In this document: one piece after another, positions 1,649-21,691 of the stretch
Position numbering within the stretch: position 1 is the first letter of the stretch
Layout of the letters: each line of letters starts with the position of its first letter
NCBI RefSeq assembly: GCF_900635955.1
Contig: NZ_LR134201.1
Location: forward strand, 62,124 to 86,123
From: Cedecea lapagei
GTDB lineage: Bacteria > Pseudomonadota > Gammaproteobacteria > Enterobacterales > Enterobacteriaceae
Length of the DNA stretch: 24,000 nt
Reading direction: 5' to 3'
The notes under the pieces: generated by a model
Seen by the model: only the letters and a program-made list of their open reading frames with translations
Database searches by the model: none
Told to the model about the DNA's origin: nothing
Position numbers and translations under genes: made by a program

Positions 1649-1831
1649 AAATACCCGACTAAATCGCTCTTTTTGTCGCCATTGATTGTGGATTTGCCGT
1701 TTTACACTCTGCTGTAATGCCGAAATATGGCCCTGGCAACTCTGACCATAAAAAAATAGCCGCCTGGGGCGGAAAAATGCAGTTTTTTCTGCGTTCGGCA
1801 GCGCGATGCCGGACATCGACAAAGGACGATC

Positions 1832-3472
1832 ATGAGCAGCGCAACATTGCAGATGCGGGAGCACTTTGAGACGTGTCTGGGGATTATTCGGCAGGCTTCT
1901 CTACAGATTCTGCCGCTCCTGAACATTCGTGCCGCCGAAGGCAAAGATCCGCAGTGGTTTTTCCAGCAGCTGGAGCAGGCCCGTATGGCGCTCGGCAGCT
2001 GGGGTGCCGTAGCAAAACGGCTGAATCTTAACGACTCAGAGATTTCACAGTTCACCCTTCTGCTGCGCCATCTACAGCAGCTGGTACCTCAGTATGAGAG
2101 CGGACAGGAAGTCGGCCAAAACCAGCTGCTCGCTGCCCTGCGATTTACCAGCTACCTTGAACACGTGCGTTTCAAGCAGCCGCTGCTGGGCTATTCCACC
2201 GAATTATCCTCTGATGTTGACGGGGTGCAGAAAGGCGCGCAGCAGCAGATGCGCGCGATTGAACTGATGCTGAAAGAGTTGGTGAGTCAGGCCTGGGAAA
2301 GCCAGGCAGATTTGGTCAATCAACTTAAAAACCAGTTTGGCGCGGATAAGGTTCGCCGCTGGCTGAAGCAGGGTGAAAGGGGCGATGTGCTAAGCGGGAT
2401 GAAGTTTAGCGAGCTGGCTCTGATGCTGGTGGATAAAAAAGAGTTTGCCCATCACTACGCAAAAATTTACCAAAATTCCCCGCAGCTGGGTTTTCTTATC
2501 GACCAGCGTAAAACCCTGCAAATCTTCCTCGACGGCGTCAGGCAGATTCGCAATGATCTGATGCACAAACAGCCGCTGACGACCGTTCAGGTGGCTCTGC
2601 TCGATAACTATTTTGGCGAAATCAGCGGCCCGGTGCAAAAAGCCTTTAGTGAGGGGCGTACCAAAGTTAATCCTTCAGCGCTGTTAGACGCCAATGACGC
2701 CGCGCTGCAAAGCTACCTTGAACAGGCTCGTAAAAACCACGCGGCCAAGGGCGGTGACCCTGAAGAGATCAGAGAGTCCATCGAACGTTATGACTCACGC
2801 GCTGATAAGAAGCAGCATGATGCCACTGGCGCTATCTCCACCGCGCTTTGGGCTTCGGTGGGTATTTTCGTCGTGGCGGTTGCGGTTGTGGGCCTCTATT
2901 TGCTTAGTGATATCTCCTCAAAACCTGGCATGGTGGCCACGCCACCGGTGGTGGTGAGCACGCCGGCACAGCAGAAAGAGCGCCCGGAATACAACAGCCC
3001 GCGCGATATGCTGGCCAACATGGGGATAACCTGGGACGAAAATAACCTTCGTACGGCGATTAACCGCAACGACGCTCGTATCGTCCGGCTGTTTATGCAG
3101 GGCGGTATGAACTGGAAGGTGTATTTCACCGAGCAGGCGCTGGCGGCAGATAACCGGGATGTATTGACCATTTTGCTACAGTATCGGCCGCAGATGGATG
3201 AGGCGCGCCCCTGTCGCCGGCTGATTAGCGCCACCGAACTGGAGATGAGGAAAGGGCAAAAGCTGACCTCGTTGAGAAAGCAATATTTAGCCAGCTTCTG
3301 CAGCTCTGCTACCGCAGTACAGCGGCAGAAAGAGGCGCTGCAGCGCGCGGAAATGCGCCTGGCGGCACAAAAGCAGCGCTATGAAGATGCCACGGCGCAG
3401 GGGCTGGTGGCCGAGCCGGTTGACGAGCTGAACGTGAAAATTCAGCAGGCGATATACAACGCGATACGTTAA
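1832..3472 (+). CDS. Hypothetical single-pass membrane protein: cytoplasmic HEPN-like (Swt1-like, Rx4H) domain, TM helix, C-terminal ankyrin-like repeats and coiled-coil tail
   Basis: 546-aa ORF with SD AAGGA 6 nt upstream of the ATG. It contains ...LQIFLDGVRQIRNDLMHKQPLTTVQVALLDNYF... (RNxxxH). There is one strongly hydrophobic segment, AISTALWASVGIFVVAVAVVGLYLL, then a Pro/Val-rich linker. Ankyrin-like stretches follow (NLRTAINRNDARIVRLFMQGGMNW and EQALAADNRDVLTILLQY), then a Q/R/A-rich tail. Only short antisense shadow ORFs overlap it. Confidence 0.8.
   Translation: MSSATLQMREHFETCLGIIRQASLQILPLLNIRAAEGKDPQWFFQQLEQARMALGSWGAVAKRLNLNDSEISQFTLLLRHLQQLVPQYESGQEVGQNQLLAALRFTSYLEHVRFKQPLLGYSTELSSDVDGVQKGAQQQMRAIELMLKELVSQAWESQADLVNQLKNQFGADKVRRWLKQGERGDVLSGMKFSELALMLVDKKEFAHHYAKIYQNSPQLGFLIDQRKTLQIFLDGVRQIRNDLMHKQPLTTVQVALLDNYFGEISGPVQKAFSEGRTKVNPSALLDANDAALQSYLEQARKNHAAKGGDPEEIRESIERYDSRADKKQHDATGAISTALWASVGIFVVAVAVVGLYLLSDISSKPGMVATPPVVVSTPAQQKERPEYNSPRDMLANMGITWDENNLRTAINRNDARIVRLFMQGGMNWKVYFTEQALAADNRDVLTILLQYRPQMDEARPCRRLISATELEMRKGQKLTSLRKQYLASFCSSATAVQRQKEALQRAEMRLAAQKQRYEDATAQGLVAEPVDELNVKIQQAIYNAIR
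2549..2566 (+). other. Codons for the candidate HEPN catalytic motif R240-N-D-L-M-H245 (Rx4H)
   Basis: cgc aat gat ctg atg cac is in frame with the 1832 start. The RNxxxH form is the common variant of the HEPN RNase motif. Confidence 0.55.
2834..2905 (+). other. Predicted transmembrane helix of the 546-aa protein (about residues 335-358)
   Basis: A 24-residue uncharged hydrophobic run is preceded by a K/R-rich stretch (RYDSRADKKQHD). By the positive-inside rule this predicts an N-in, C-out topology. Confidence 0.7.
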
Positions 3473-3478
3473 TCATGC

Positions 3479-3504
3479 GGGGCTGCCTGCGGGCCGGCAG
3501 CCCC
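3479..3504. terminator. GC-rich hairpin between convergent genes (the HEPN-like ORF and the omptin gene)
   Basis: GGGGCTGCC (3479-3487) pairs with GGCAGCCCC (3496-3504) around an 8-nt loop. There is no clear U-tract on either strand, so intrinsic-terminator function is uncertain. Confidence 0.45.
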
Positions 3505-3540
3505 TGATGAACAATAAGAAAACTATTGGGCCATAAACCT

Positions 3541-4473
3541 TTAGAAACGATACTGAACGCCGACGCCGTAGGTATAGCTGTCGTTGCTCAGGCCTGCCGC
3601 GTCGCCGCCTTCAGACCAGGTTTCTCCGGTTTTATTATCACGCGTTTTCGTCGAGGCTTTCGCTTCGGCAAAACGCGTCCACGTTAATTCGGTATAGAGA
3701 CGGGTATTCGGCGTGACGTAATACCCGGCAGAAACGGTAGCAGCGTAATAATTAGAATTATTGCCTTTTTCGCTAAAGCTCAGCTGACGCATATAATGCT
3801 CGTCATTATCTCGCGCATTTACCCACGGGCTGAATTTAAATTGTCCTGCTAAATCAAAATCCTGGTAACGATAGCTCGCGGTTAACCCCAAATACGGGAC
3901 GCTGAATTTCTGGCTGTACCCAATACCCGGTTTTCCGGCAGGAAATTCACCGACCAGCGCACCATTAAAATAGTTATACGAGCCGCCGCGGGCTGTCCAG
4001 CTATAACGAGTTTCCTGGTAACCGGTGACGATGCCAAGGTTATAAGTTGGCTCCTTCAACAGCCAGCCGGTGAAATTAAGATCAAACTGATTGGCGTAAT
4101 TCAGGCTGGTGTCAGGGTGGGTGGACTTGTCGCTCCAGTGGCTCTGCCCTGGCGTTTGCCAGTCATAATCTGTCATGTGCGAGCCGCGTGAGGCAAAGGT
4201 TGTCCAGCCATTAGCGTTGAGGGTGATATACCGCTGGGCATCCCAGCTAATGCCGCCTTTAATAATGGGCGTGTTTTTAATTTTCCATTTCAGTTCACTT
4301 AATTTACTGCCATCGTGTTGATTATAAACGAGCTCTTTAGATTCTCCGTTCAAAACGCCGGTGGAAATATTTGCAGTTACTGCATCGGGTGAAAAATTAA
4401 AACTGGTCGAAGCGAGCAGCGCCGGACTAAATAGCAATGCGGCGGCCGCAGGCAGGTATTTTTGCTTGTGCAT
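3541..4473 (-). CDS. Omptin-family outer-membrane aspartyl protease (OmpT/PgtE/Pla-like)
   Basis: 310-aa ORF alignable by eye with E. coli OmpT along its length. It has a signal peptide (MHKQKYLPAAAALLFSPALLAS). Both catalytic pairs are conserved: TDYDW (D102/D104) and DNDEHY (D224/H226). It ends in a C-terminal beta-barrel signature, ...GVQYRF. G+C is lower than in the backbone. Confidence 0.9.
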   Translation of the reverse strand: MHKQKYLPAAAALLFSPALLASTSFNFSPDAVTANISTGVLNGESKELVYNQHDGSKLSELKWKIKNTPIIKGGISWDAQRYITLNANGWTTFASRGSHMTDYDWQTPGQSHWSDKSTHPDTSLNYANQFDLNFTGWLLKEPTYNLGIVTGYQETRYSWTARGGSYNYFNGALVGEFPAGKPGIGYSQKFSVPYLGLTASYRYQDFDLAGQFKFSPWVNARDNDEHYMRQLSFSEKGNNSNYYAATVSAGYYVTPNTRLYTELTWTRFAEAKASTKTRDNKTGETWSEGGDAAGLSNDSYTYGVGVQYRF

Positions 4474-4950
4474 GATGTATCGTTCTGTTTTCTATAACAT
4501 TGGTTTTGTGTTGCAAAAAATAACCCTGTACGGACAGGTTAAAGGCCGCAAAGGATCATGGTTGCGCGATAAATTATGTTGTTGAAAATTATTATTAGTT
4601 TGTCTTGCCAGGCAAAACGAAGCGTAGTGTATGGACTGTTTTTAGGCAGGGGAAAGATTATTTTCTGCTGATGAATATTTGAACGATGAATTATTTGATT
4701 TTAAAGAGAATTAAATTTGTAGCTTTTTGTTACAGGGATATATCATAACTATTCATATGTATTTATTGAAGAAATTTAACTTAAGGACGATTTGCCGGTA
4801 AAGCCCAGGGGTCTCTGGCATATTCATTCCACTCTCTTTTTAGCTCTTGCGGCTTCACCCTGGCAGGGCACGCGGCGTAATGCCGGAAAAAATTAAAGCT
4901 GCTAATCTTCGGGCCGACACTGTTAGCTGACCCTTTACCTGGAGTGACCT

Positions 4951-5487
4951 ATGGAGCCGCTGCTGACTACGCCGCGCCTGACGCTGCGCAAGTTTACCCG
5001 TGCGGATTTACCCGTTTTTATTGAATACCGTAATCAGCCGGAAGTGGCCCGCTACCAGAGCTGGGACGGCTACAGCCAGGCCGATGCCGAGGCGTTTTAT
5101 GCTCAGCAGGCGCCGCTGGCGTTTAATACCGACGAAAGCTGGTTCCAGATTGCGGTCGTGCGCAGCGAAGACCAGCGTTTGCTGGGGGACGTGGCCGTTC
5201 ACTTTTTTCATGATGGCCAGCAGGCAGAATTAGGCATGACCTTTGACGAACGCCATCAGCGCCAGGGATTCGCTTTCGAATCTTTGCGCGGGGTGATTGA
5301 GCTGCTGTTCACTGCTTACAACAAACACCGCCTGGTGGCGACGGTGGATGCCAGGAATGCGGCGGCGGCGGCCCTGCTGGAAAAACTGGGTTTTCGTCGC
5401 GAAGCACATTTTCGCAAGAATATTTTATTTAAAGGCGAATGGGGTGATGAATATGCCTACGGGCTGTTACGCAGCGAATGGAAATAA
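4951..5487 (+). CDS. GNAT-family N-acetyltransferase (RimJ/RimL-like, Acetyltransf_3 type)
   Basis: 178-aa ORF with SD GGAG 8 nt upstream. The N-terminus is typical of the family (TPRLTLRKFTRADLPVFIEYRNQPEVARY). The acetyl-CoA motif region reads RHQRQGFAFESL. The C-terminus reads LEKLGFRREAHFRKNILFKGEWGDEYAYGLL. Confidence 0.85.
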   Translation: MEPLLTTPRLTLRKFTRADLPVFIEYRNQPEVARYQSWDGYSQADAEAFYAQQAPLAFNTDESWFQIAVVRSEDQRLLGDVAVHFFHDGQQAELGMTFDERHQRQGFAFESLRGVIELLFTAYNKHRLVATVDARNAAAAALLEKLGFRREAHFRKNILFKGEWGDEYAYGLLRSEWK

Positions 5488-5494
5488 AAATAAC

Positions 5495-5524
5495 GGCCTG
5501 CTTCTCAGGCCTTTATTCTTTTTG
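5495..5524 (+). terminator. Rho-independent terminator of the GNAT gene
   Basis: GGCCTG (5495-5500) pairs with CAGGCC (5506-5511) around a 5-nt loop. It is followed by the T-rich run TTTATTCTTTTTG. Confidence 0.75.
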
Positions 5525-5627
5525 TTATTTAACAGCGAGCTATAACAACAGGAACTGAAAAATCTATTTAATATTGTCTGAGCGTTACTTTATGATTTTG
5601 TGCGTTTTAATTTAGTCCTCAGGATGG

Positions 5628-5671
5628 TGTTTAGGTTTTGTTTAACTTTCGATTTTCATTCTTACTATACT
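5628..5671 (+). promoter_or_regulatory. PhoP-box-like direct repeat plus candidate -10 element upstream of the Kdo-hydroxylase-like gene
   Basis: TGTTTA (5628-5633), ggttt, TGTTTA (5639-5644) is an exact match to the (T/G)GTTTA-N5-(T/G)GTTTA PhoP box. Candidate -10 hexamers are CATTCT (5657-5662, 12 nt downstream) and TATACT (5666-5671, 21 nt downstream). The element lies in a 313-bp AT-rich spacer, 157 bp before the ATG. Confidence 0.5.
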
Positions 5672-5800
5672 GGATAAAACCCTTTTTGGTATGCATTCGC
5701 CACCCTATGGCGGGATCATTCTTACGTCTTTCTAAAAATAAAATACTCCGGAAATTAATCTGTTAAATACACCGTCCGGATATTTGGCAAGGACATTGAT

Positions 5801-6694
5801 ATGGCAGATTTAAACCTCTCTCTTGATACTGTGACCCTGACGCATCCTCTTTCTGTATGGGGGGGAGCCGTAGCTGAATCGGTGGTGGGCGACCTGGAGC
5901 AGGGCAAAGTCATTTTCCTGCCGCAGCTGGCTTTTGCGCTCACCGGGCAGGAAAAGGCCCTGCTTAACCCGGCGGTGGTTGACCCGAAACGCAAGAACAT
6001 CAGCTATCAGCCGCTAAAGGATAAGCTGACCGGCGTTGCGATCCCTGAGCAGGAGCCGGAAGTTCGCGCTCTGCTGAAACGCCACTACGAAGCCTGCCAG
6101 AAGCTTATCGCTACTCTGCTGCCGGAATACCAGCAGGTGCTGCATACGCCGACCAACAGCCTGCGCCTGCATCCTGTTAAGCAGTGGACGCAAAACACCT
6201 CCTGGCGTAAAGACGACAGCCGCCTGCACGTGGATGCTTTCCCGTCCCGCCCTAACTACGGCGAGCGCATCCTGCGTATTTTCACCAACATCAATCCGGC
6301 CGGTGAAAGCCGCAGCTGGCGCGTTGGCGAAGCTTTCCCTACGCTGGCCGAGCGCTTCCTTCCGCGCCTGAAAAGCTATTCCCCGGCGAGCAGCTGGCTG
6401 CAGAACGCCGTCGGCATCACCAAAACTCGCCGTAGCCATTACGACCACCTGATGCTGCAGATGCACGATGCGATGAAGGCCGATGCGGACTACCAGAAAC
6501 AGGGGCCGCAGGTGGCCATCGACTTCCCGCCGGGCAGCAGCTGGATCTGTTTCTCCGACCAGACGCCGCATGCCGCCATGGGCGGGCAGTTTATGCTGGA
6601 GCAAACCTTCCTGCTGCCGGTCGAGGAGATGCAAAACCCGCAGACCTCGCCGCTGAAGGTGCTGGAAGGTATATTGCATAAGCCGCTGATCTAA
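5801..6694 (+). CDS. kdoO: Kdo hydroxylase-like Fe(II)/2-oxoglutarate dioxygenase (KdoO family, DUF2843-type)
   Basis: 297-aa ORF with SD AAGGA. The N-terminal signature LEQGKVIFLPQLAFALTGQEKALLNPAVVDPKRKNISY matches what I recall of KdoO-family proteins. An HxD...H facial-triad candidate is present: H143-V-D145 (RLHVDAFPSRP) and H257 (DQTPHAAMGG). The family assignment is from memory, not from a search. Confidence 0.6.
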   Translation: MADLNLSLDTVTLTHPLSVWGGAVAESVVGDLEQGKVIFLPQLAFALTGQEKALLNPAVVDPKRKNISYQPLKDKLTGVAIPEQEPEVRALLKRHYEACQKLIATLLPEYQQVLHTPTNSLRLHPVKQWTQNTSWRKDDSRLHVDAFPSRPNYGERILRIFTNINPAGESRSWRVGEAFPTLAERFLPRLKSYSPASSWLQNAVGITKTRRSHYDHLMLQMHDAMKADADYQKQGPQVAIDFPPGSSWICFSDQTPHAAMGGQFMLEQTFLLPVEEMQNPQTSPLKVLEGILHKPLI

Positions 6695-13537: not shown

Positions 13538-13936
13538 ATGTTGCCTGCTATGCAGCCGATCCGACATTTCGCCCGCCAGCTAAGGCGACAGATGACCCCC
13601 GAAGAGAGCCTGCTGTGGTATCAACTCCGCTGCAGGCGCTTTGCCGCGTTTAAGTTTCGTCGCCAGCATCCGATTGGGCCCTATATTGTTGATTTTGCCT
13701 GCTGCGCTGCTCGTCTGGCGATTGAGCTGGACGGTGGGCAGCATGAGGCACAAAGAGGCTACGATGCGCGAAGAACGAAGTACCTCAATGAGCAGGGATG
13801 GCGGGTGAGGCGGTTCTGGAATAACGAGCTGTGGGGAGAGCTGGAGGGGGTGTTGACGGTGATCCTTCAGGATTTGAATGAGCTTAGACCCTCACCCCGG
13901 CCCTCTCCCTGGAAGGGAGAGGGGGAAAACCGATAA
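13538..13936 (+). CDS. DUF559 (Vsr/restriction-endonuclease-like fold) domain protein with a repeat-encoded C-terminal tail
   Basis: 132-aa ORF with the typical DUF559 pattern: LRRQMTPEESLLWYQLR...FKFRRQHPIGPYIVDF...LAIELDGGQHE...DARRTKYLNEQGWRVRRFWNNEL. The last ~17 residues (RPSPRPSPWKGEGENR) are translated from the REP-like repeat beginning at 13888. An alternative start is ATG 13550. Confidence 0.7.
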   Translation: MLPAMQPIRHFARQLRRQMTPEESLLWYQLRCRRFAAFKFRRQHPIGPYIVDFACCAARLAIELDGGQHEAQRGYDARRTKYLNEQGWRVRRFWNNELWGELEGVLTVILQDLNELRPSPRPSPWKGEGENR

Positions 13937-18166: not shown

Positions 18167-19036
18167 TTAAGTATCAAATGAGCAGAGCCAGTCAGTAAAT
18201 TTTTTTACTGCCTCATCATGCCTGCCATGCCACAGCAGTGAATAAGAGCCTGTATTGATCACACGATCGTCAAACGGTGATACCAGTCTCCCTGAGTTGA
18301 GATGTTTTGCGCAAAACAGCAAAGGGATCACCGCCAGCCCTAACCCATCTTCGGCCGCCTGAATCGCGGCAAAGGTGTGGTCAAGCGTAATGACGTTGGA
18401 CACGGTATCCTGGCTACCAGAAAACGTATCGTGCCAGCTTTTCCATAAATCTTCCCGTGCCCTAATGGCGAGTTTTACATGGCCCTCTAACCTTTCAGGG
18501 GAGGGTAATGGCCGGGTTCGCAAATACCCGGCGCTACAGACGAGCAGGCTGGTTTCGTTGAGAAATGGCTGAGCTTTGAGACCTGCAAAATGCGCCGGGT
18601 TTCTGCGTATGGCGATATCAAAAGGAACGGAGAGATTCACGGGCCCGATACTTGTCGTGACATCTACGGTGAGCTCTGGATGCAGTTCGTTGAAATCAGT
18701 CAGCCTGGGCATTAGCCAGTGCATGGCAAATGTCGGAAGACACTGGACGGTTAGCCGCGCTGAAGGTGCTATGGCGCTTAGTTTTTTTTCTGCCTCAGAA
18801 AGTTCAGTTAATAACCGGGTTGCAACCCTGGAAAATGCTTCTCCCGCCTCCGTAAGCCTTACCGATTTATGAGCCCGGTAAAATAGCTGCGTACCAAGCT
18901 GTTCCTCAAGGCTTCTAATGTGACGACTCACGGCGCCGGTGGTGATGAAAAGCTCATCTGCCGCTGCGCTAAAGCTGTTTCTGCGCGCTGCGGCCTCAAA
19001 GGCGGGCAAATGAGGCAGAGAGAGTGGTTTTTTCAT
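18167..19036 (-). CDS. LysR-family transcriptional regulator (GcvA-like subgroup)
   Basis: 289-aa ORF. The N-terminal LTTR wHTH reads LPHLPAFEAAARRNSFSAAADELFITTGAVSRHIRSLEEQLGTQLFYRAHKSVRLTEAG. A C-terminal substrate-binding domain follows. It is divergent from the GNAT-MFS pair. Confidence 0.9.
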   Translation of the reverse strand: MKKPLSLPHLPAFEAAARRNSFSAAADELFITTGAVSRHIRSLEEQLGTQLFYRAHKSVRLTEAGEAFSRVATRLLTELSEAEKKLSAIAPSARLTVQCLPTFAMHWLMPRLTDFNELHPELTVDVTTSIGPVNLSVPFDIAIRRNPAHFAGLKAQPFLNETSLLVCSAGYLRTRPLPSPERLEGHVKLAIRAREDLWKSWHDTFSGSQDTVSNVITLDHTFAAIQAAEDGLGLAVIPLLFCAKHLNSGRLVSPFDDRVINTGSYSLLWHGRHDEAVKKFTDWLCSFDT

Positions 19037-19039
19037 TGA

Positions 19040-19054
19040 TTGAGTTTAGCTCAA
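19040..19054. promoter_or_regulatory. LTTR-box-like palindrome (T-N11-A) in the LysR / GNAT-MFS divergent region
   Basis: TTGAG-tttag-CTCAA at 19040-19054 (core TGAG-N5-CTCA = T-N11-A). It lies 4 bp from the LysR start codon and ~85-100 bp upstream of the GNAT start. Confidence 0.35.
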
Positions 19055-19137
19055 CCAGGCGAGAGAGAAAAGATCGTTTGTCAGAAGCATTCTCCACTCT
19101 TTAACATCAATCAAAAGTGATTTTGGGGGGATGCGAA

Positions 19138-19638
19138 ATGTTTAAAATGAACATTAGGGCGGCTGAATATAATGATATTAACGGGATAATAGATATCTAT
19201 TCTTATTATGTTTTGAAATCCACCGTGACATTTGAAATACAATTGCCGAGCTATCAAGAAATGTCAGGCCGATTAGCTAAGGCCCATGAAACACATTGTC
19301 CATTTCTGGTTTGTGAAGTGGATGAGAAAATTGCAGGTTTCACCTACGCATCGCGTTACAGGTCTCGTGAAGGGTATCGTTACACTGTTGAAGGATCTAT
19401 TTATATAGCCTCCTCTTTTCAAGGAATAGGCCTGGGGTCAGCATTACTGCAAGAACTCTTTTATCATTGCAAAAGGCAGGGCTTCAGGCAAATGATCTGT
19501 GTTGTCACAGGGCAGGTTAACAGTCCATCATATAAATTTCATATTAATAACGGATTTACTTATTGTGGCGGCCTGAAAAATGTAGGAAATAAATTCGACG
19601 CGTTTATAGATACCCATTTTTTTCAAAGGGAAATATAA
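19138..19638 (+). CDS. Phosphinothricin/methionine-sulfoximine N-acetyltransferase-like GNAT (PAT/MddA/YwnH type)
   Basis: The ORF has the PAT-family layout: MNIRAAEYNDINGIIDIYSYYVLKSTVTFEIQLPSYQEM...PFLVCEVDEKIAGFTYASRYRSREGYRYTVEGSIYIASSFQGIGLGSALL...GNKFDAFIDTHFFQ. ATG 19138 has a GGGGGG SD 7 nt upstream. ATG 19147 (MNIR...) is an alternative, and the track start at GTG 19117 is less likely. The ORF is very AT-rich; for example 19141-19200 is 17/60 G+C. Confidence 0.85.
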   Translation: MFKMNIRAAEYNDINGIIDIYSYYVLKSTVTFEIQLPSYQEMSGRLAKAHETHCPFLVCEVDEKIAGFTYASRYRSREGYRYTVEGSIYIASSFQGIGLGSALLQELFYHCKRQGFRQMICVVTGQVNSPSYKFHINNGFTYCGGLKNVGNKFDAFIDTHFFQREI

Positions 19639-20817
19639 ATGAAGCCGTTCTATACACTCTGCATCGGTCGTGTCGGCGCATCTTTTGGTACGATGGCGTA
19701 CGCGGGTGCATTGCCGGTTATCAGGGCCGAATGGCATCTTGATGCGTCATCGGCAGGTGCGATTCAAACGGCCTTTAATATCGCAAATGCGCTTGGCTTA
19801 TTTTCGACATCGTGGCTATGTGATTATTTTGGCGCCAAAAGAGTGTATTTAATGTTCTCCTGGCTGGCAGTGGCGGCGCTGTTTCTTTTTGCTTATGCCG
19901 CACATTCATATACTTCCGCCATGGTGATAATAATACTGGTGGGACTGACACAGGGAGGGGCTTATACACCATCAATGCTGCTGGCGTTAAAAATGAGCAG
20001 TATACATAAGAGAGGATATTCGGTGGGTATGATTCTGACGGCCGGCTCGCTGGGCTACCTTCTTTCTCTTTTCATTGCCTCCTGGGGCTCGGCCTTCAAA
20101 AATGTTTCATTTGCCTTTTATTTGTGCTCGCTGGGTGTGCTAGCCGGGGCATTACTCAGTAGTTTGGCGCTGTATCATTACAAAGAAGAGTTGTGTGAGA
20201 CCACCTGCACATTAAAGAAAACGGATAACTCCCGTTTTAAACTGACCGCGTTGCTGTTGTTAGTTGGCTATATTGCTCATTGCTGGGAGTTGTTAGGCAG
20301 TTGGGCGTGGACACCCAGTATGATTGCACATGCGCTCGTAAATGAAAATTTCAGTCCTCTGACAACCGGATTAATCATTACTTTTACTATCCACTTATCC
20401 GGCATGCTTTCAACACTGCTGGTAGGTTCAATATCCGATTATTTTAACCGTACTGCCGTTCTGATTTTTATGGGTGCAGGAGGAGCAATAAGTTCAGTTC
20501 TGATGGGGATGTCCGTTTCATGGGGCGCAGCCTGGTCTATCGCTTTGGCTTTTCTTGGCAGTTTTTTTATTTTAGGCGACTCGGGTGTGTTATCTGCGGC
20601 GATTGCTGATAATGTCCCAGCTGAAAAAATAGGTAAAGTCATGGGGGTCCGTTCTTTACTTGGTTTTGGATGTGGATCGTTTTCACCTTTTTTATTTGGT
20701 ATGGCCCTGGATGCGAGTAATAGTTGGTGGCTCGCGTATAGTGTCTTAGGCTTGGGGGGAATTATTGCCTGTTTCTCAGCAATATTACTCAAGCGAAGTG
20801 AAAGGGCTGTGGCATAG
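19639..20817 (+). CDS. MFS-superfamily transporter
   Basis: 392-aa ORF made up almost entirely of hydrophobic helices (about 12). A central cytoplasmic loop reads YHYKEELCETTCTLKKTDNSRFK. Its ATG directly abuts the GNAT stop codon (TAAATG at 19636-19641), implying co-translation as an operon. Confidence 0.85.
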   Translation: MKPFYTLCIGRVGASFGTMAYAGALPVIRAEWHLDASSAGAIQTAFNIANALGLFSTSWLCDYFGAKRVYLMFSWLAVAALFLFAYAAHSYTSAMVIIILVGLTQGGAYTPSMLLALKMSSIHKRGYSVGMILTAGSLGYLLSLFIASWGSAFKNVSFAFYLCSLGVLAGALLSSLALYHYKEELCETTCTLKKTDNSRFKLTALLLLVGYIAHCWELLGSWAWTPSMIAHALVNENFSPLTTGLIITFTIHLSGMLSTLLVGSISDYFNRTAVLIFMGAGGAISSVLMGMSVSWGAAWSIALAFLGSFFILGDSGVLSAAIADNVPAEKIGKVMGVRSLLGFGCGSFSPFLFGMALDASNSWWLAYSVLGLGGIIACFSAILLKRSERAVA

Positions 20818-20926
20818 CATTTTTATTTAAAGCGATATGGCAGGAACGGTAAATTAAGAGGCCAAATTGTTTTCTTCTTTCGAACGTTGAAAATACATTT
20901 TTAAGTAAACTTGAATGAGGTGTTAA

Positions 20927-21691
20927 ATGGAAAGTTTAAAAGACTGGAATCCAGCGCTGTATTTAAAGTTTGAAAATGAACGCACAAGGCCGGCGATGGA
21001 ATTATTAGCTAAAATTAATCATCCGATGGCCAAAACGTACACTGACATTGGCTGCGGTCCGGGGAACTCGACGGCATTACTCTATGCATTGGCACCTGAA
21101 GCAAAAATAACAGGCCTGGACAATTCGCCAGAAATGTTAGCCAGAGCGCGGGAAAACCTCCCCGCTTGCCAGTTTGAAAATGCGGATATCGCAACATGGA
21201 AACCTGATAGTAAACAAGATGTTATTTTCGCCAATGCGTCTATGCAGTGGATACCCAATCATCAGCATGTTTTTCCACATCTTGTGCAGCAGCTTAGTGC
21301 AGAAGGGGTATTAGCCGTACAAATGCCAGATAACTGGGGAGAATATACGCATACCCTTATGCGGCAAGTTGCGGCTGAATTTGATTGCGCAGATTCAGAG
21401 CGTGAAGCATTACTGACAATCAATGAATATTATGATCTTTTAACCGCTGCAGGTTGTGACGTTGATATCTGGCGAACCACATACTTTCATGTCATGCCAT
21501 CCATTCAGGCGATAGTTGACTGGCGCTCAGGCAGCGGCATGCGGCTTTATCTGCAGGCGTTAACCAGTCAGCAAAGAGAACGTTTCCTTGAAAGGTATAG
21601 CAGCCTTCTTAATGAGCACTATCCAGCGCAAGCGGATGGAAATAGAGTAATGGCATTTCCTCGCCTCTTTATTGTGGCGAGAAAAAAATAA
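20927..21691 (+). CDS. tam: Trans-aconitate 2-methyltransferase
   Basis: 254-aa ORF with SD GAGGTG. It aligns with E. coli Tam along its length: DWNPALYLKFENERTRPAMELLA..., DIGCGPGNSTALL, FANASMQWIPNH...FPHLV...GVLAVQMPDNW, DIWRTTYFHVMPS and AFPRLFIVARKK. Confidence 0.85.
   Translation: MESLKDWNPALYLKFENERTRPAMELLAKINHPMAKTYTDIGCGPGNSTALLYALAPEAKITGLDNSPEMLARARENLPACQFENADIATWKPDSKQDVIFANASMQWIPNHQHVFPHLVQQLSAEGVLAVQMPDNWGEYTHTLMRQVAAEFDCADSEREALLTINEYYDLLTAAGCDVDIWRTTYFHVMPSIQAIVDWRSGSGMRLYLQALTSQQRERFLERYSSLLNEHYPAQADGNRVMAFPRLFIVARKK

Follow-up and report, generated by a model that had tools for sequence, protein, structure and literature searches.

The subject of this report is a gene in a stretch of 24,000 nucleotides from Cedecea lapagei (contig NZ_LR134201.1, positions 62,124 to 86,123; the whole stretch is referred to below as the window). 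The gene, at 1832–3472 on the plus strand, is complete, encodes a protein of 546 residues, and is the Cedecea-clade ortholog of Salmonella STM3604/STY4199 and a member of the Pfam family PF18729. The best explanation of its product is a membrane-anchored HEPN domain that would be switched by a periplasmic domain, in the manner of Ire1 and RNase L; this explanation is given roughly an even chance. Unlike most of the orthologs that stand without a linked partner gene (the solo orthologs), the window protein keeps the ancestral catalytic set R240, N241 and H245, and it is the solo version of a module that is linked to a partner of about 700 residues in the examined histidine-bearing relatives sharing its external domain.

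The open reading frame, first put forward in an earlier note made from the sequence alone (the original prediction), is real. It starts with an ATG, a Shine-Dalgarno-like AAGGA is read 6 nt 5' of this codon (1821–1825, plus strand), the start agrees with the N-termini of the orthologs, with which the 546-residue frame is collinear in the alignment, and the peptide quoted in that prediction is correct. Residues 2–281 match PF18729 ('STY4199-like HEPN', HEPN_STY4199) with 456.3 bits and E=5e-137, over profile positions 3–282 of 282 and against a cut-off of 25 bits, so that the protein belongs to the family. This region (1835–2674, plus strand) corresponds to the whole profile and is a predicted cytoplasmic module that is all-helical in the AlphaFold model. 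The HEPN core probably occupies residues 130–280 or thereabouts, with a conserved helical N-terminal region before it; a conserved RAxEL helix is found at residues 130–154 in the alignments of both the orthologs and the distant members.

A homology search of 5.8 billion proteins yielded 258 relatives. The best 120 of these are all full-length (527–553 residues, 47–99% identity) and all from the Enterobacteriaceae, including Cedecea, Buttiauxella, Dryocola, Cronobacter, Enterobacter, Kosakonia and Leclercia, and the relatives are named 'STY4199 family HEPN domain-containing protein' by NCBI. In a scan of species-representative genomes, 201 contig stretches encoding a relative were recovered, the closest being of the Cedecea neteri type (90%) and C. 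davisae (84%), and the orthologs from at least 80 species genomes were compared. The Salmonella Typhimurium ortholog, STM3604 (L087:6995–8584), adjoins treF and shows 47% identity over 100% of the length; orthology with STY4199/STM3604 is borne out by collinearity over the full length and by the shared gor/treF neighbourhood on the chromosome. The wider family was sampled by a HMMER scan of 1.84 billion representatives, which gave 209 family representatives (146 at E<=1e-10), most of them 500–1300 residues long and aligning only to query residues ~45–360.

The assignment of the N-terminal half to the HEPN superfamily, which the original prediction had based on an Rx4H motif, is supported at the level of sequence, by the PF18729 match together with weak matches of the motif helix to other families, which point to a HEPN domain of the Swt1/Abi2 type. 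These matches are all below threshold (HEPN_Swt1 6e-4, AbiD 6e-4, Abi_2 0.012, HEPN_RiboL-PSP 0.06, and Cas13a 0.002–0.015). A Foldseek search of the full-length model against PDB and BFVD gave no significant match, HEPN structures included, and is uninformative with regard to HEPN. The motif, R240-N241-D-L-M-H245 (RNxxxH), lies at 2549–2566 on the plus strand, where it had been predicted, and has the spacing of Rx4-6H with a polar residue after the arginine.

The conservation of the three motif residues, which had been proposed as a check on the HEPN assignment, is uneven among 81 species orthologs (the window protein included, as in all motif counts below). R240 is invariant, as are R237, L249 and Q253, and N241 is kept in 75/81, but H245 is present in only 9/81, namely seven Cedecea-clade sequences including that of the window, Dryocola sp. 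BD626 and Cedecea colo. In the other orthologs the position is occupied by V (31), A (18), Q (15), S, E, L, M or G, and there is no histidine conserved anywhere in the ortholog alignment. The Salmonella ortholog, for example, reads RNEVIARQ and is therefore without the catalytic histidine; the lineage that gave the family its name thus lacks this residue, although STY4199 is listed as 'active' by Anantharaman et al. (2013, PMC3710099). In 56 distant members, on the other hand, RNxxxH is invariant. R, N and H are among only five invariant columns of that alignment and are the sole polar ones, with the consensus R-N-x-[LIV]-[AS]-H-[HN]-[KR]. When the tree is rooted on these histidine-bearing distant relatives, losses of the histidine fall on the stem of the Enterobacter-type sequences, in Buttiauxella, within Dryocola, and in P0121, an isolated lineage. 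Therefore, the histidine is ancestral and has been lost repeatedly.

The membrane topology agrees with that originally proposed. In an AlphaFold2 model built from an alignment of 40 sequences (mean predicted local distance difference test score, pLDDT, 84), residues 1–306 are all-helical, residues 332–361 form a transmembrane helix, residues 362–386 form a disordered linker, and residues 390–545 form a compact helical domain. The single transmembrane helix (2825–2914, plus strand) has a hydrophobic core at residues 335–358 (ISTALW...GLYLL), the position given in the original prediction, with a Kyte-Doolittle peak of 2.4 at residues 341–359, and is preceded by a K/R-rich segment. The window protein has 4 K+R on the N-terminal side of the helix and 1 on the C-terminal side, in accordance with the positive-inside bias already noted for it. 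Across 211 family members the corresponding means are 4.3 and 1.8, the N-terminal side being the richer in 178 and the poorer in 14. The window protein has no N-terminal signal peptide. The K/R excess and the lack of a signal peptide together predict a cytoplasmic HEPN module, carried by an N-terminal part of ~330 residues, and a periplasmic C-terminal domain; a single-pass inner-membrane protein of N-in/C-out orientation is thereby supported. The linker (2915–2989, plus strand), which had been described as Pro/Val-rich, is indeed rich in Pro, Val and Thr; it is predicted to be disordered (pLDDT <50), and its alignment columns are variable. In nearly all of the ~95 longer family representatives, likewise, a single transmembrane helix directly follows the HEPN module and is itself followed by an extracytoplasmic region.

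The region beyond the helix is the variable part of the family. Across the 209 representatives it includes bona fide ANK, TPR and CsgG domains and many unnamed ones, and may reach 1000 residues; P0192, for example, carries a genuine ankyrin array at residues ~830–1300, and P0135 has a zinc ribbon at its N-terminus. Such variety outside, behind a cytoplasmic module and transmembrane helix that stay constant, is what one would expect if the family were receptors whose sensor domains can be exchanged. The external domain of the window protein (residues 387–546; 2990–3469, plus strand) is predicted to be periplasmic and all-helical, and when modelled alone it reaches a pLDDT of 95.1 and a predicted template modelling score of 0.83. 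The Q/R/A-rich tail, taken in the original prediction for a coiled coil, is modelled inside this compact domain (pLDDT >90), no free coiled coil being predicted. Relatives from Rahnella, Paraburkholderia and metagenomes possess the entire domain, and the part of it next to the linker, ~40 residues long (…MGITWDENNLRTAINRNDARIVRLFMQGG…), is conserved in ~40 distant representatives. It has no Pfam match and no significant fold or sequence match in PDB; the top non-significant Foldseek matches were PPR and designed helical repeats, with a best E of 0.29. In profile searches of PDB sequences, TPR matches were traced solely to TPR-bearing members of the mixed alignment, and a 'sensory box' match (E=0.08) was disregarded as weak.

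Two cysteines in the external domain, Cys461 in an RPCRR motif (3212–3214, plus strand) and Cys490 in an FC motif (3299–3301, plus strand), are invariant in 40 orthologs and in the 11 distant members that have the domain, and they probably form a periplasmic disulfide pair, to judge from this conservation. A third cysteine, corresponding to residue ~533 of the window protein, is conserved near the C-terminus in several distant members that share the domain (P0122, P0123, P0125, P0126, P0128 and P0130, among others); it is missing from the solo orthologs of enterobacteria, the window protein among them.

The original prediction also described two ankyrin-like repeats in the external domain. The repeated helix pairs exist: residues 397–451 (3020–3184, plus strand) form two helix-turn-helix units of ~27 residues each in the AlphaFold model (helices 403–411 and 415–423, and helices 430–438 and 442–450), no external segment being conserved more widely in the family than the first unit. 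The evidence for their homology to ankyrin repeats is marginal, and they are at most possible degenerate repeats. In hhalign comparisons, residues 392–457 align in register with two repeats of the natural ANK array in P0192 and with an ANK consensus, but the scores are weak (P 0.03–0.04, z 2.5–2.9) and were also reached by 3/100 shuffled sequences and by one unrelated control. No Pfam Ank match was found for the window protein at E<=10 or for its C-terminal fragment at E<=1, and no ANK structure is among the top PDB matches of the C-terminal model in Foldseek. In the homologous region of other members, matches to Ank below threshold are seen in P0143 (Ank_4, 5.9e-4, 20.5 bits vs 22.7), P0133 (0.023) and P0130 (0.13).

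The second lead comes from the neighbourhood of the distant relatives. In six loci a conserved protein of ~700 residues is encoded directly beside the PF18729 gene, in three gene orders. The HEPN gene precedes the partner gene in Paraburkholderia (14-bp gap) and in the metagenome loci L089 (14-nt overlap) and L094 (38 bp); the partner gene precedes the HEPN gene in Atlantibacter hermannii (21 bp); and the two are convergent in Rahnella (59 bp) and in the metagenome locus L091, where the partner gene is cut by the contig end. The six partner genes are located at L081:9934–12114(+), L082:7919–10006(-), L089:2363–4486(+), L093:5001–7067(+), L094:5001–7112(+) and L091:2525–2854(-, cut). The adjacency is kept despite the shuffled gene order, which argues for functional coupling, and the ~700-residue protein is likely a functional partner of the histidine-bearing PF18729 proteins. 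All six of the partner-linked HEPN proteins carry the canonical RNxxAHHK. The partner is anchored in the membrane by its C-terminus and is marked by the motifs EDFSLD[TS]C, GTGNDxVISVDP, PNQPW[YW]D and ASHVWEPV, and phyla-level relatives are 38–47% identical to one another along the whole protein. Searches of Pfam, NCBIfam, PADLOC and PDB with the partner found nothing, and its family comprises 25 clusters, all labelled 'hypothetical protein'. A CorA-like PADLOC match (5e-7) belongs only to a distant 506-residue relative in the P0133 locus. With two partner sequences as tblastn queries (E<=1e-3), no partner was found in the window or in 80 enterobacterial loci. In the Rahnella loci, an open reading frame of 33 codons is situated ~165 bp upstream of the HEPN gene (L082:5735–5836 and L083:2289–2390); further upstream the two contigs differ, one of them having an integrase and a GNAT gene.

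HEPN RNases are generally dimeric, with a composite active site formed from two Rx4-6H motifs, and for the window protein control of dimerisation or orientation from the periplasm would therefore be the most economical mechanism. In the explanation preferred here, the periplasmic domain would control the oligomeric state of the protein or its orientation across the membrane. What is switched in this way, on the inner face of the membrane, would be an endoribonuclease that needs no metal, or failing that a site for RNA binding. A fuller version may be entertained, tentatively and with more doubt than belief: the STY4199 family would be the bacterial counterpart of Ire1 and RNase L and would originally have worked with the ~700-residue partner, the solo clade would have arisen by loss of the partner and repeated decay of the histidine, and catalytic competence would survive in Cedecea, as it rarely does among solo lineages.

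Several points weigh against the preferred explanation. H245 is absent in 72/81 orthologs, and the flanks of the window motif (M-H-K-Q) depart from the ancestral A-H-[HN]-[KR]. The histidine has been lost repeatedly in orthologs that occupy one and the same locus. What the solo clade conserves is probably a role independent of RNA cleavage, so that cleavage by the Cedecea copy may be residual. It is by analogy that dimerisation, ligand sensing and RNA cleavage are ascribed to the protein, profile searches of PDB sequences found no relative with a solved structure, and no experimental characterisation of any member of the STY4199 family was found in the literature, the only item found on STM3604 being one entry in a transcriptomics table. 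The missing histidines, which reflect several independent losses and extend to the Salmonella ortholog, and the diverged motif flanks are also what would be seen if the HEPN domain of the solo clade, Cedecea included, were a pseudo-enzyme, that is, a non-catalytic module for RNA or protein binding or for scaffolding, with H245 as an ancestral leftover. This alternative has an appreciable probability, though one short of even. The partner of the histidine-bearing relatives is missing here, and the open reading frame stays full-length, with R237, R240, Q253 and the N-terminal and periplasmic motifs invariant, as purifying selection for a non-catalytic role would have it; moreover, the HEPN domain of eukaryotic Swt1 has been described as probably inactive (PMC3710099). 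The alternative is less easily reconciled with the seven Cedecea-clade sequences, all of which keep R, N and H together, while the retention of R240 and N241 even where the histidine is gone might mean that the chemistry is altered and not abolished.

The role suggested in the original prediction, that of a one-gene abortive-infection system, fits the data poorly. Here the protein would be a stand-alone anti-phage toxin, its RNase being activated by phage perturbation of the envelope so as to arrest the cell. HEPN domains of the Abi2/AbiD/AbiF type do act in abortive infection (PMC3710099), the AbiD and Cas13a similarities are in keeping with such a role if weak, and some distant histidine-bearing members are found in contexts resembling defence islands: Abi_C, patatin and ParDE in the P0133 locus, a NACHT/STAND NTPase in that of P0140, and an integrase in one of the Rahnella loci, besides a distant homolog of the partner next to a TIR/AAA protein and an integrase. 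The window gene itself, however, keeps one chromosomal position near gor across 80 species; in the window it is set in the conserved gor-rlmJ-prlC-uspA-pitA backbone and has backbone G+C. It has no significant match to the defence models of PADLOC-DB v2 or NCBIfam, the only PADLOC hit being a weak local similarity of the HEPN motif region to Cas13a (E=0.0019, 14.6 bits), and no genuine phage or plasmid carriage was seen. The loss of the histidine in most orthologs would also be unexpected for a toxin kept by phage pressure. Both the core-like place of the gene on the chromosome and the decayed catalytic residue make this role unlikely, and less likely than that of a pseudo-enzyme. It may finally be asked whether the Rx4H motif is a coincidence in an unrelated helical membrane protein. 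The bare Rx4-6H pattern is indeed uninformative, as it occurs three times in the window protein and at least once in 82% of its shuffled sequences, and no HEPN structure was matched significantly. RNxxxH, however, occurs in only 2% of the shuffled sequences, the PF18729 match extends over the full profile, the same helix weakly matches four other HEPN families, and R, N and H are the only polar residues invariant in the 56 distant members. The family match and this invariance take the motif beyond chance, and a coincidence is very improbable and effectively refuted. The preferred explanation, a HEPN domain at the inner membrane that would be switched from the periplasm, is to be set chiefly against that of a pseudo-enzyme.

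The window is conserved chromosomal backbone. Its genes are, in order, a MocR-type regulator, the HEPN gene, an omptin, a GNAT, a Kdo hydroxylase (KdoO), gor, rlmJ, PAP2, prlC, rsmJ, DUF559, uspA, uspB, pitA and yhiN. The neighbours had been identified correctly in the original prediction, namely the MocR-type regulator (GntR plus aminotransferase) and the omptin, and the G+C content of the HEPN gene (0.53–0.58) is, as claimed there, typical of the surroundings. The absence of an MNT-type or other small partner was likewise confirmed, since no credible small open reading frame flanks the gene and it is not part of a HEPN-MNT or small-antitoxin pair. Among the 80 species, the gene lies within a few kb of gor wherever the fetched flank reaches gor. 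The MocR gene is adjacent only in the Cedecea/Buttiauxella/Dryocola clade, and the omptin, GNAT and KdoO genes are found only in Cedecea, the Enterobacter-type genomes having a divergent GNAT gene upstream. The stretch with the omptin, GNAT and KdoO genes (3541–6694) is lower in G+C (0.42–0.49 in parts of 3500–6000), which suggests a clade-specific insertion of envelope-modifying genes.

An operon link with the upstream MocR gene was considered; the adjacency is limited to one clade, and promoter and terminator scans of the window gave chance-level results only. Between the convergent HEPN and omptin genes, a perfect GC-rich inverted repeat of 9 bp (GGGGCTGCC N8 GGCAGCCCC) is read at 3479–3504. 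It is possibly the hairpin of a bidirectional terminator, although there is no clear T-run and the consensus scan was negative. Matches to the gene in phage and plasmid collections consist of a 606-kb 'plasmid' replicon, Salmonella chromosomal contigs and short UNVERIFIED_ORG fragments, and provide no evidence of carriage by mobile elements. No DNA-level match to the gene was found in E. coli. Elsewhere in the window, a small gene of the DUF559/MTES_1575 type (Vsr-like restriction-endonuclease fold) is located at 13538–13936 between rsmJ and uspA, and horizontal acquisition may account for an AT-rich block at 19000–21500 (G+C 0.41–0.45, against ~0.55–0.60 nearby), in which GNAT, MFS-transporter and methyltransferase genes are located.

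With regard to novelty, the original prediction held that no characterised protein was known with a HEPN-TM-ankyrin layout. The layout and the mechanism are in fact already covered by the Pfam family, the NCBI name and the comparative study of Anantharaman, Makarova, Burroughs, Koonin and Aravind (2013, PMC3710099). In that study 'Fusions to TM (STY4199), active' are listed in the Swt1-like HEPN group, the architecture of a HEPN domain, a conserved transmembrane segment and an all-alpha domain is described in Salmonella, and it is proposed, on the model of Ire1, that surface stimuli sensed by the external domains change the conformation of HEPN and the stability of RNA. Therefore, the window protein is an ordinary member of a family already catalogued in Pfam and NCBI, and its detection was a correct rediscovery, not a new layout or a new kind of system. 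What is new here is modest: the repeated loss of the histidine among the orthologs and the linkage of the family to the ~700-residue partner.

These two leads provide concrete entry points for experiments, namely the histidine retained in Cedecea and the linked partner. Should the STY4199 family prove to be a membrane receptor in direct control of an RNase, it would represent a bacterial route from surface stimulus to RNA cleavage, a kind of signalling that has been proposed in bacteria but never studied there. The Cedecea copy, if still catalytically competent, would be a handle for the comparison of active and inactive orthologs at one locus. The loss of the histidine in most orthologs, meanwhile, cautions against their automatic annotation as active RNases or toxins.

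Compared with known systems, the window protein is closest to the other members of the STY4199 family, with which it shares the HEPN module, the single transmembrane helix, the linker, the helical external domain, a length of 527–553 residues and a location near gor/treF. It differs from them in a few respects: the window protein and its Cedecea relatives keep the histidine, whereas Salmonella, Enterobacter, Buttiauxella and most other orthologs are without it; there is a 13-residue insertion in the C-terminal helix relative to the Enterobacter-type orthologs; and the MocR and omptin neighbours are specific to its clade. The partnered relatives (Rahnella, Atlantibacter, Paraburkholderia and metagenomes; ~619–645 residues) are the nearest outgroups to its group in the tree and share the cytoplasmic module, the transmembrane helix, the whole periplasmic domain and both cysteines. 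They are distinguished by a C-terminus longer by 70–100 residues, by the canonical form of the motif, and by the adjacent partner, which the window lacks.

Among other HEPN proteins, the Abi2/AbiD/AbiF and Swt1-like ones are the closest subgroup by sequence, and the family is grouped likewise in PMC3710099. These proteins are soluble, however, without a transmembrane helix or an external domain, and the Abi genes belong to mobile or defence loci. Since its matches stay below the family thresholds, the window protein cannot be counted among these families. Membrane-tethered HEPN proteins are also represented by DUF4145, with an N-terminal WP-motif transmembrane segment, and by the Planctomycetes HEPN-2TM-Zn-ribbon proteins, both of which are predicted to link RNA degradation to stimuli at the surface (PMC3710099). 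They belong to another HEPN subfamily, differ in domain order and in the number of transmembrane segments, and showed no detectable sequence relationship with the window protein in the present searches.

The likeness to the eukaryotic Ire1 and RNase L is of another kind. In the eukaryotic proteins, and putatively in the window protein, a HEPN-superfamily nuclease is coupled to a sensor domain or lies on the cytoplasmic side of one. Ire1 and RNase L are activated by ligand- or stress-driven dimerisation, and RNase L combines ankyrin repeats with HEPN. The two eukaryotic proteins have KEN domains and a kinase or pseudokinase; in contrast, the window protein has no such kinase, its HEPN domain is Swt1/Abi2-like and not KEN, and its predicted site is the bacterial inner membrane. 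The resemblance, for which the same analogy was drawn in PMC3710099, is therefore one of logic and not of family membership.

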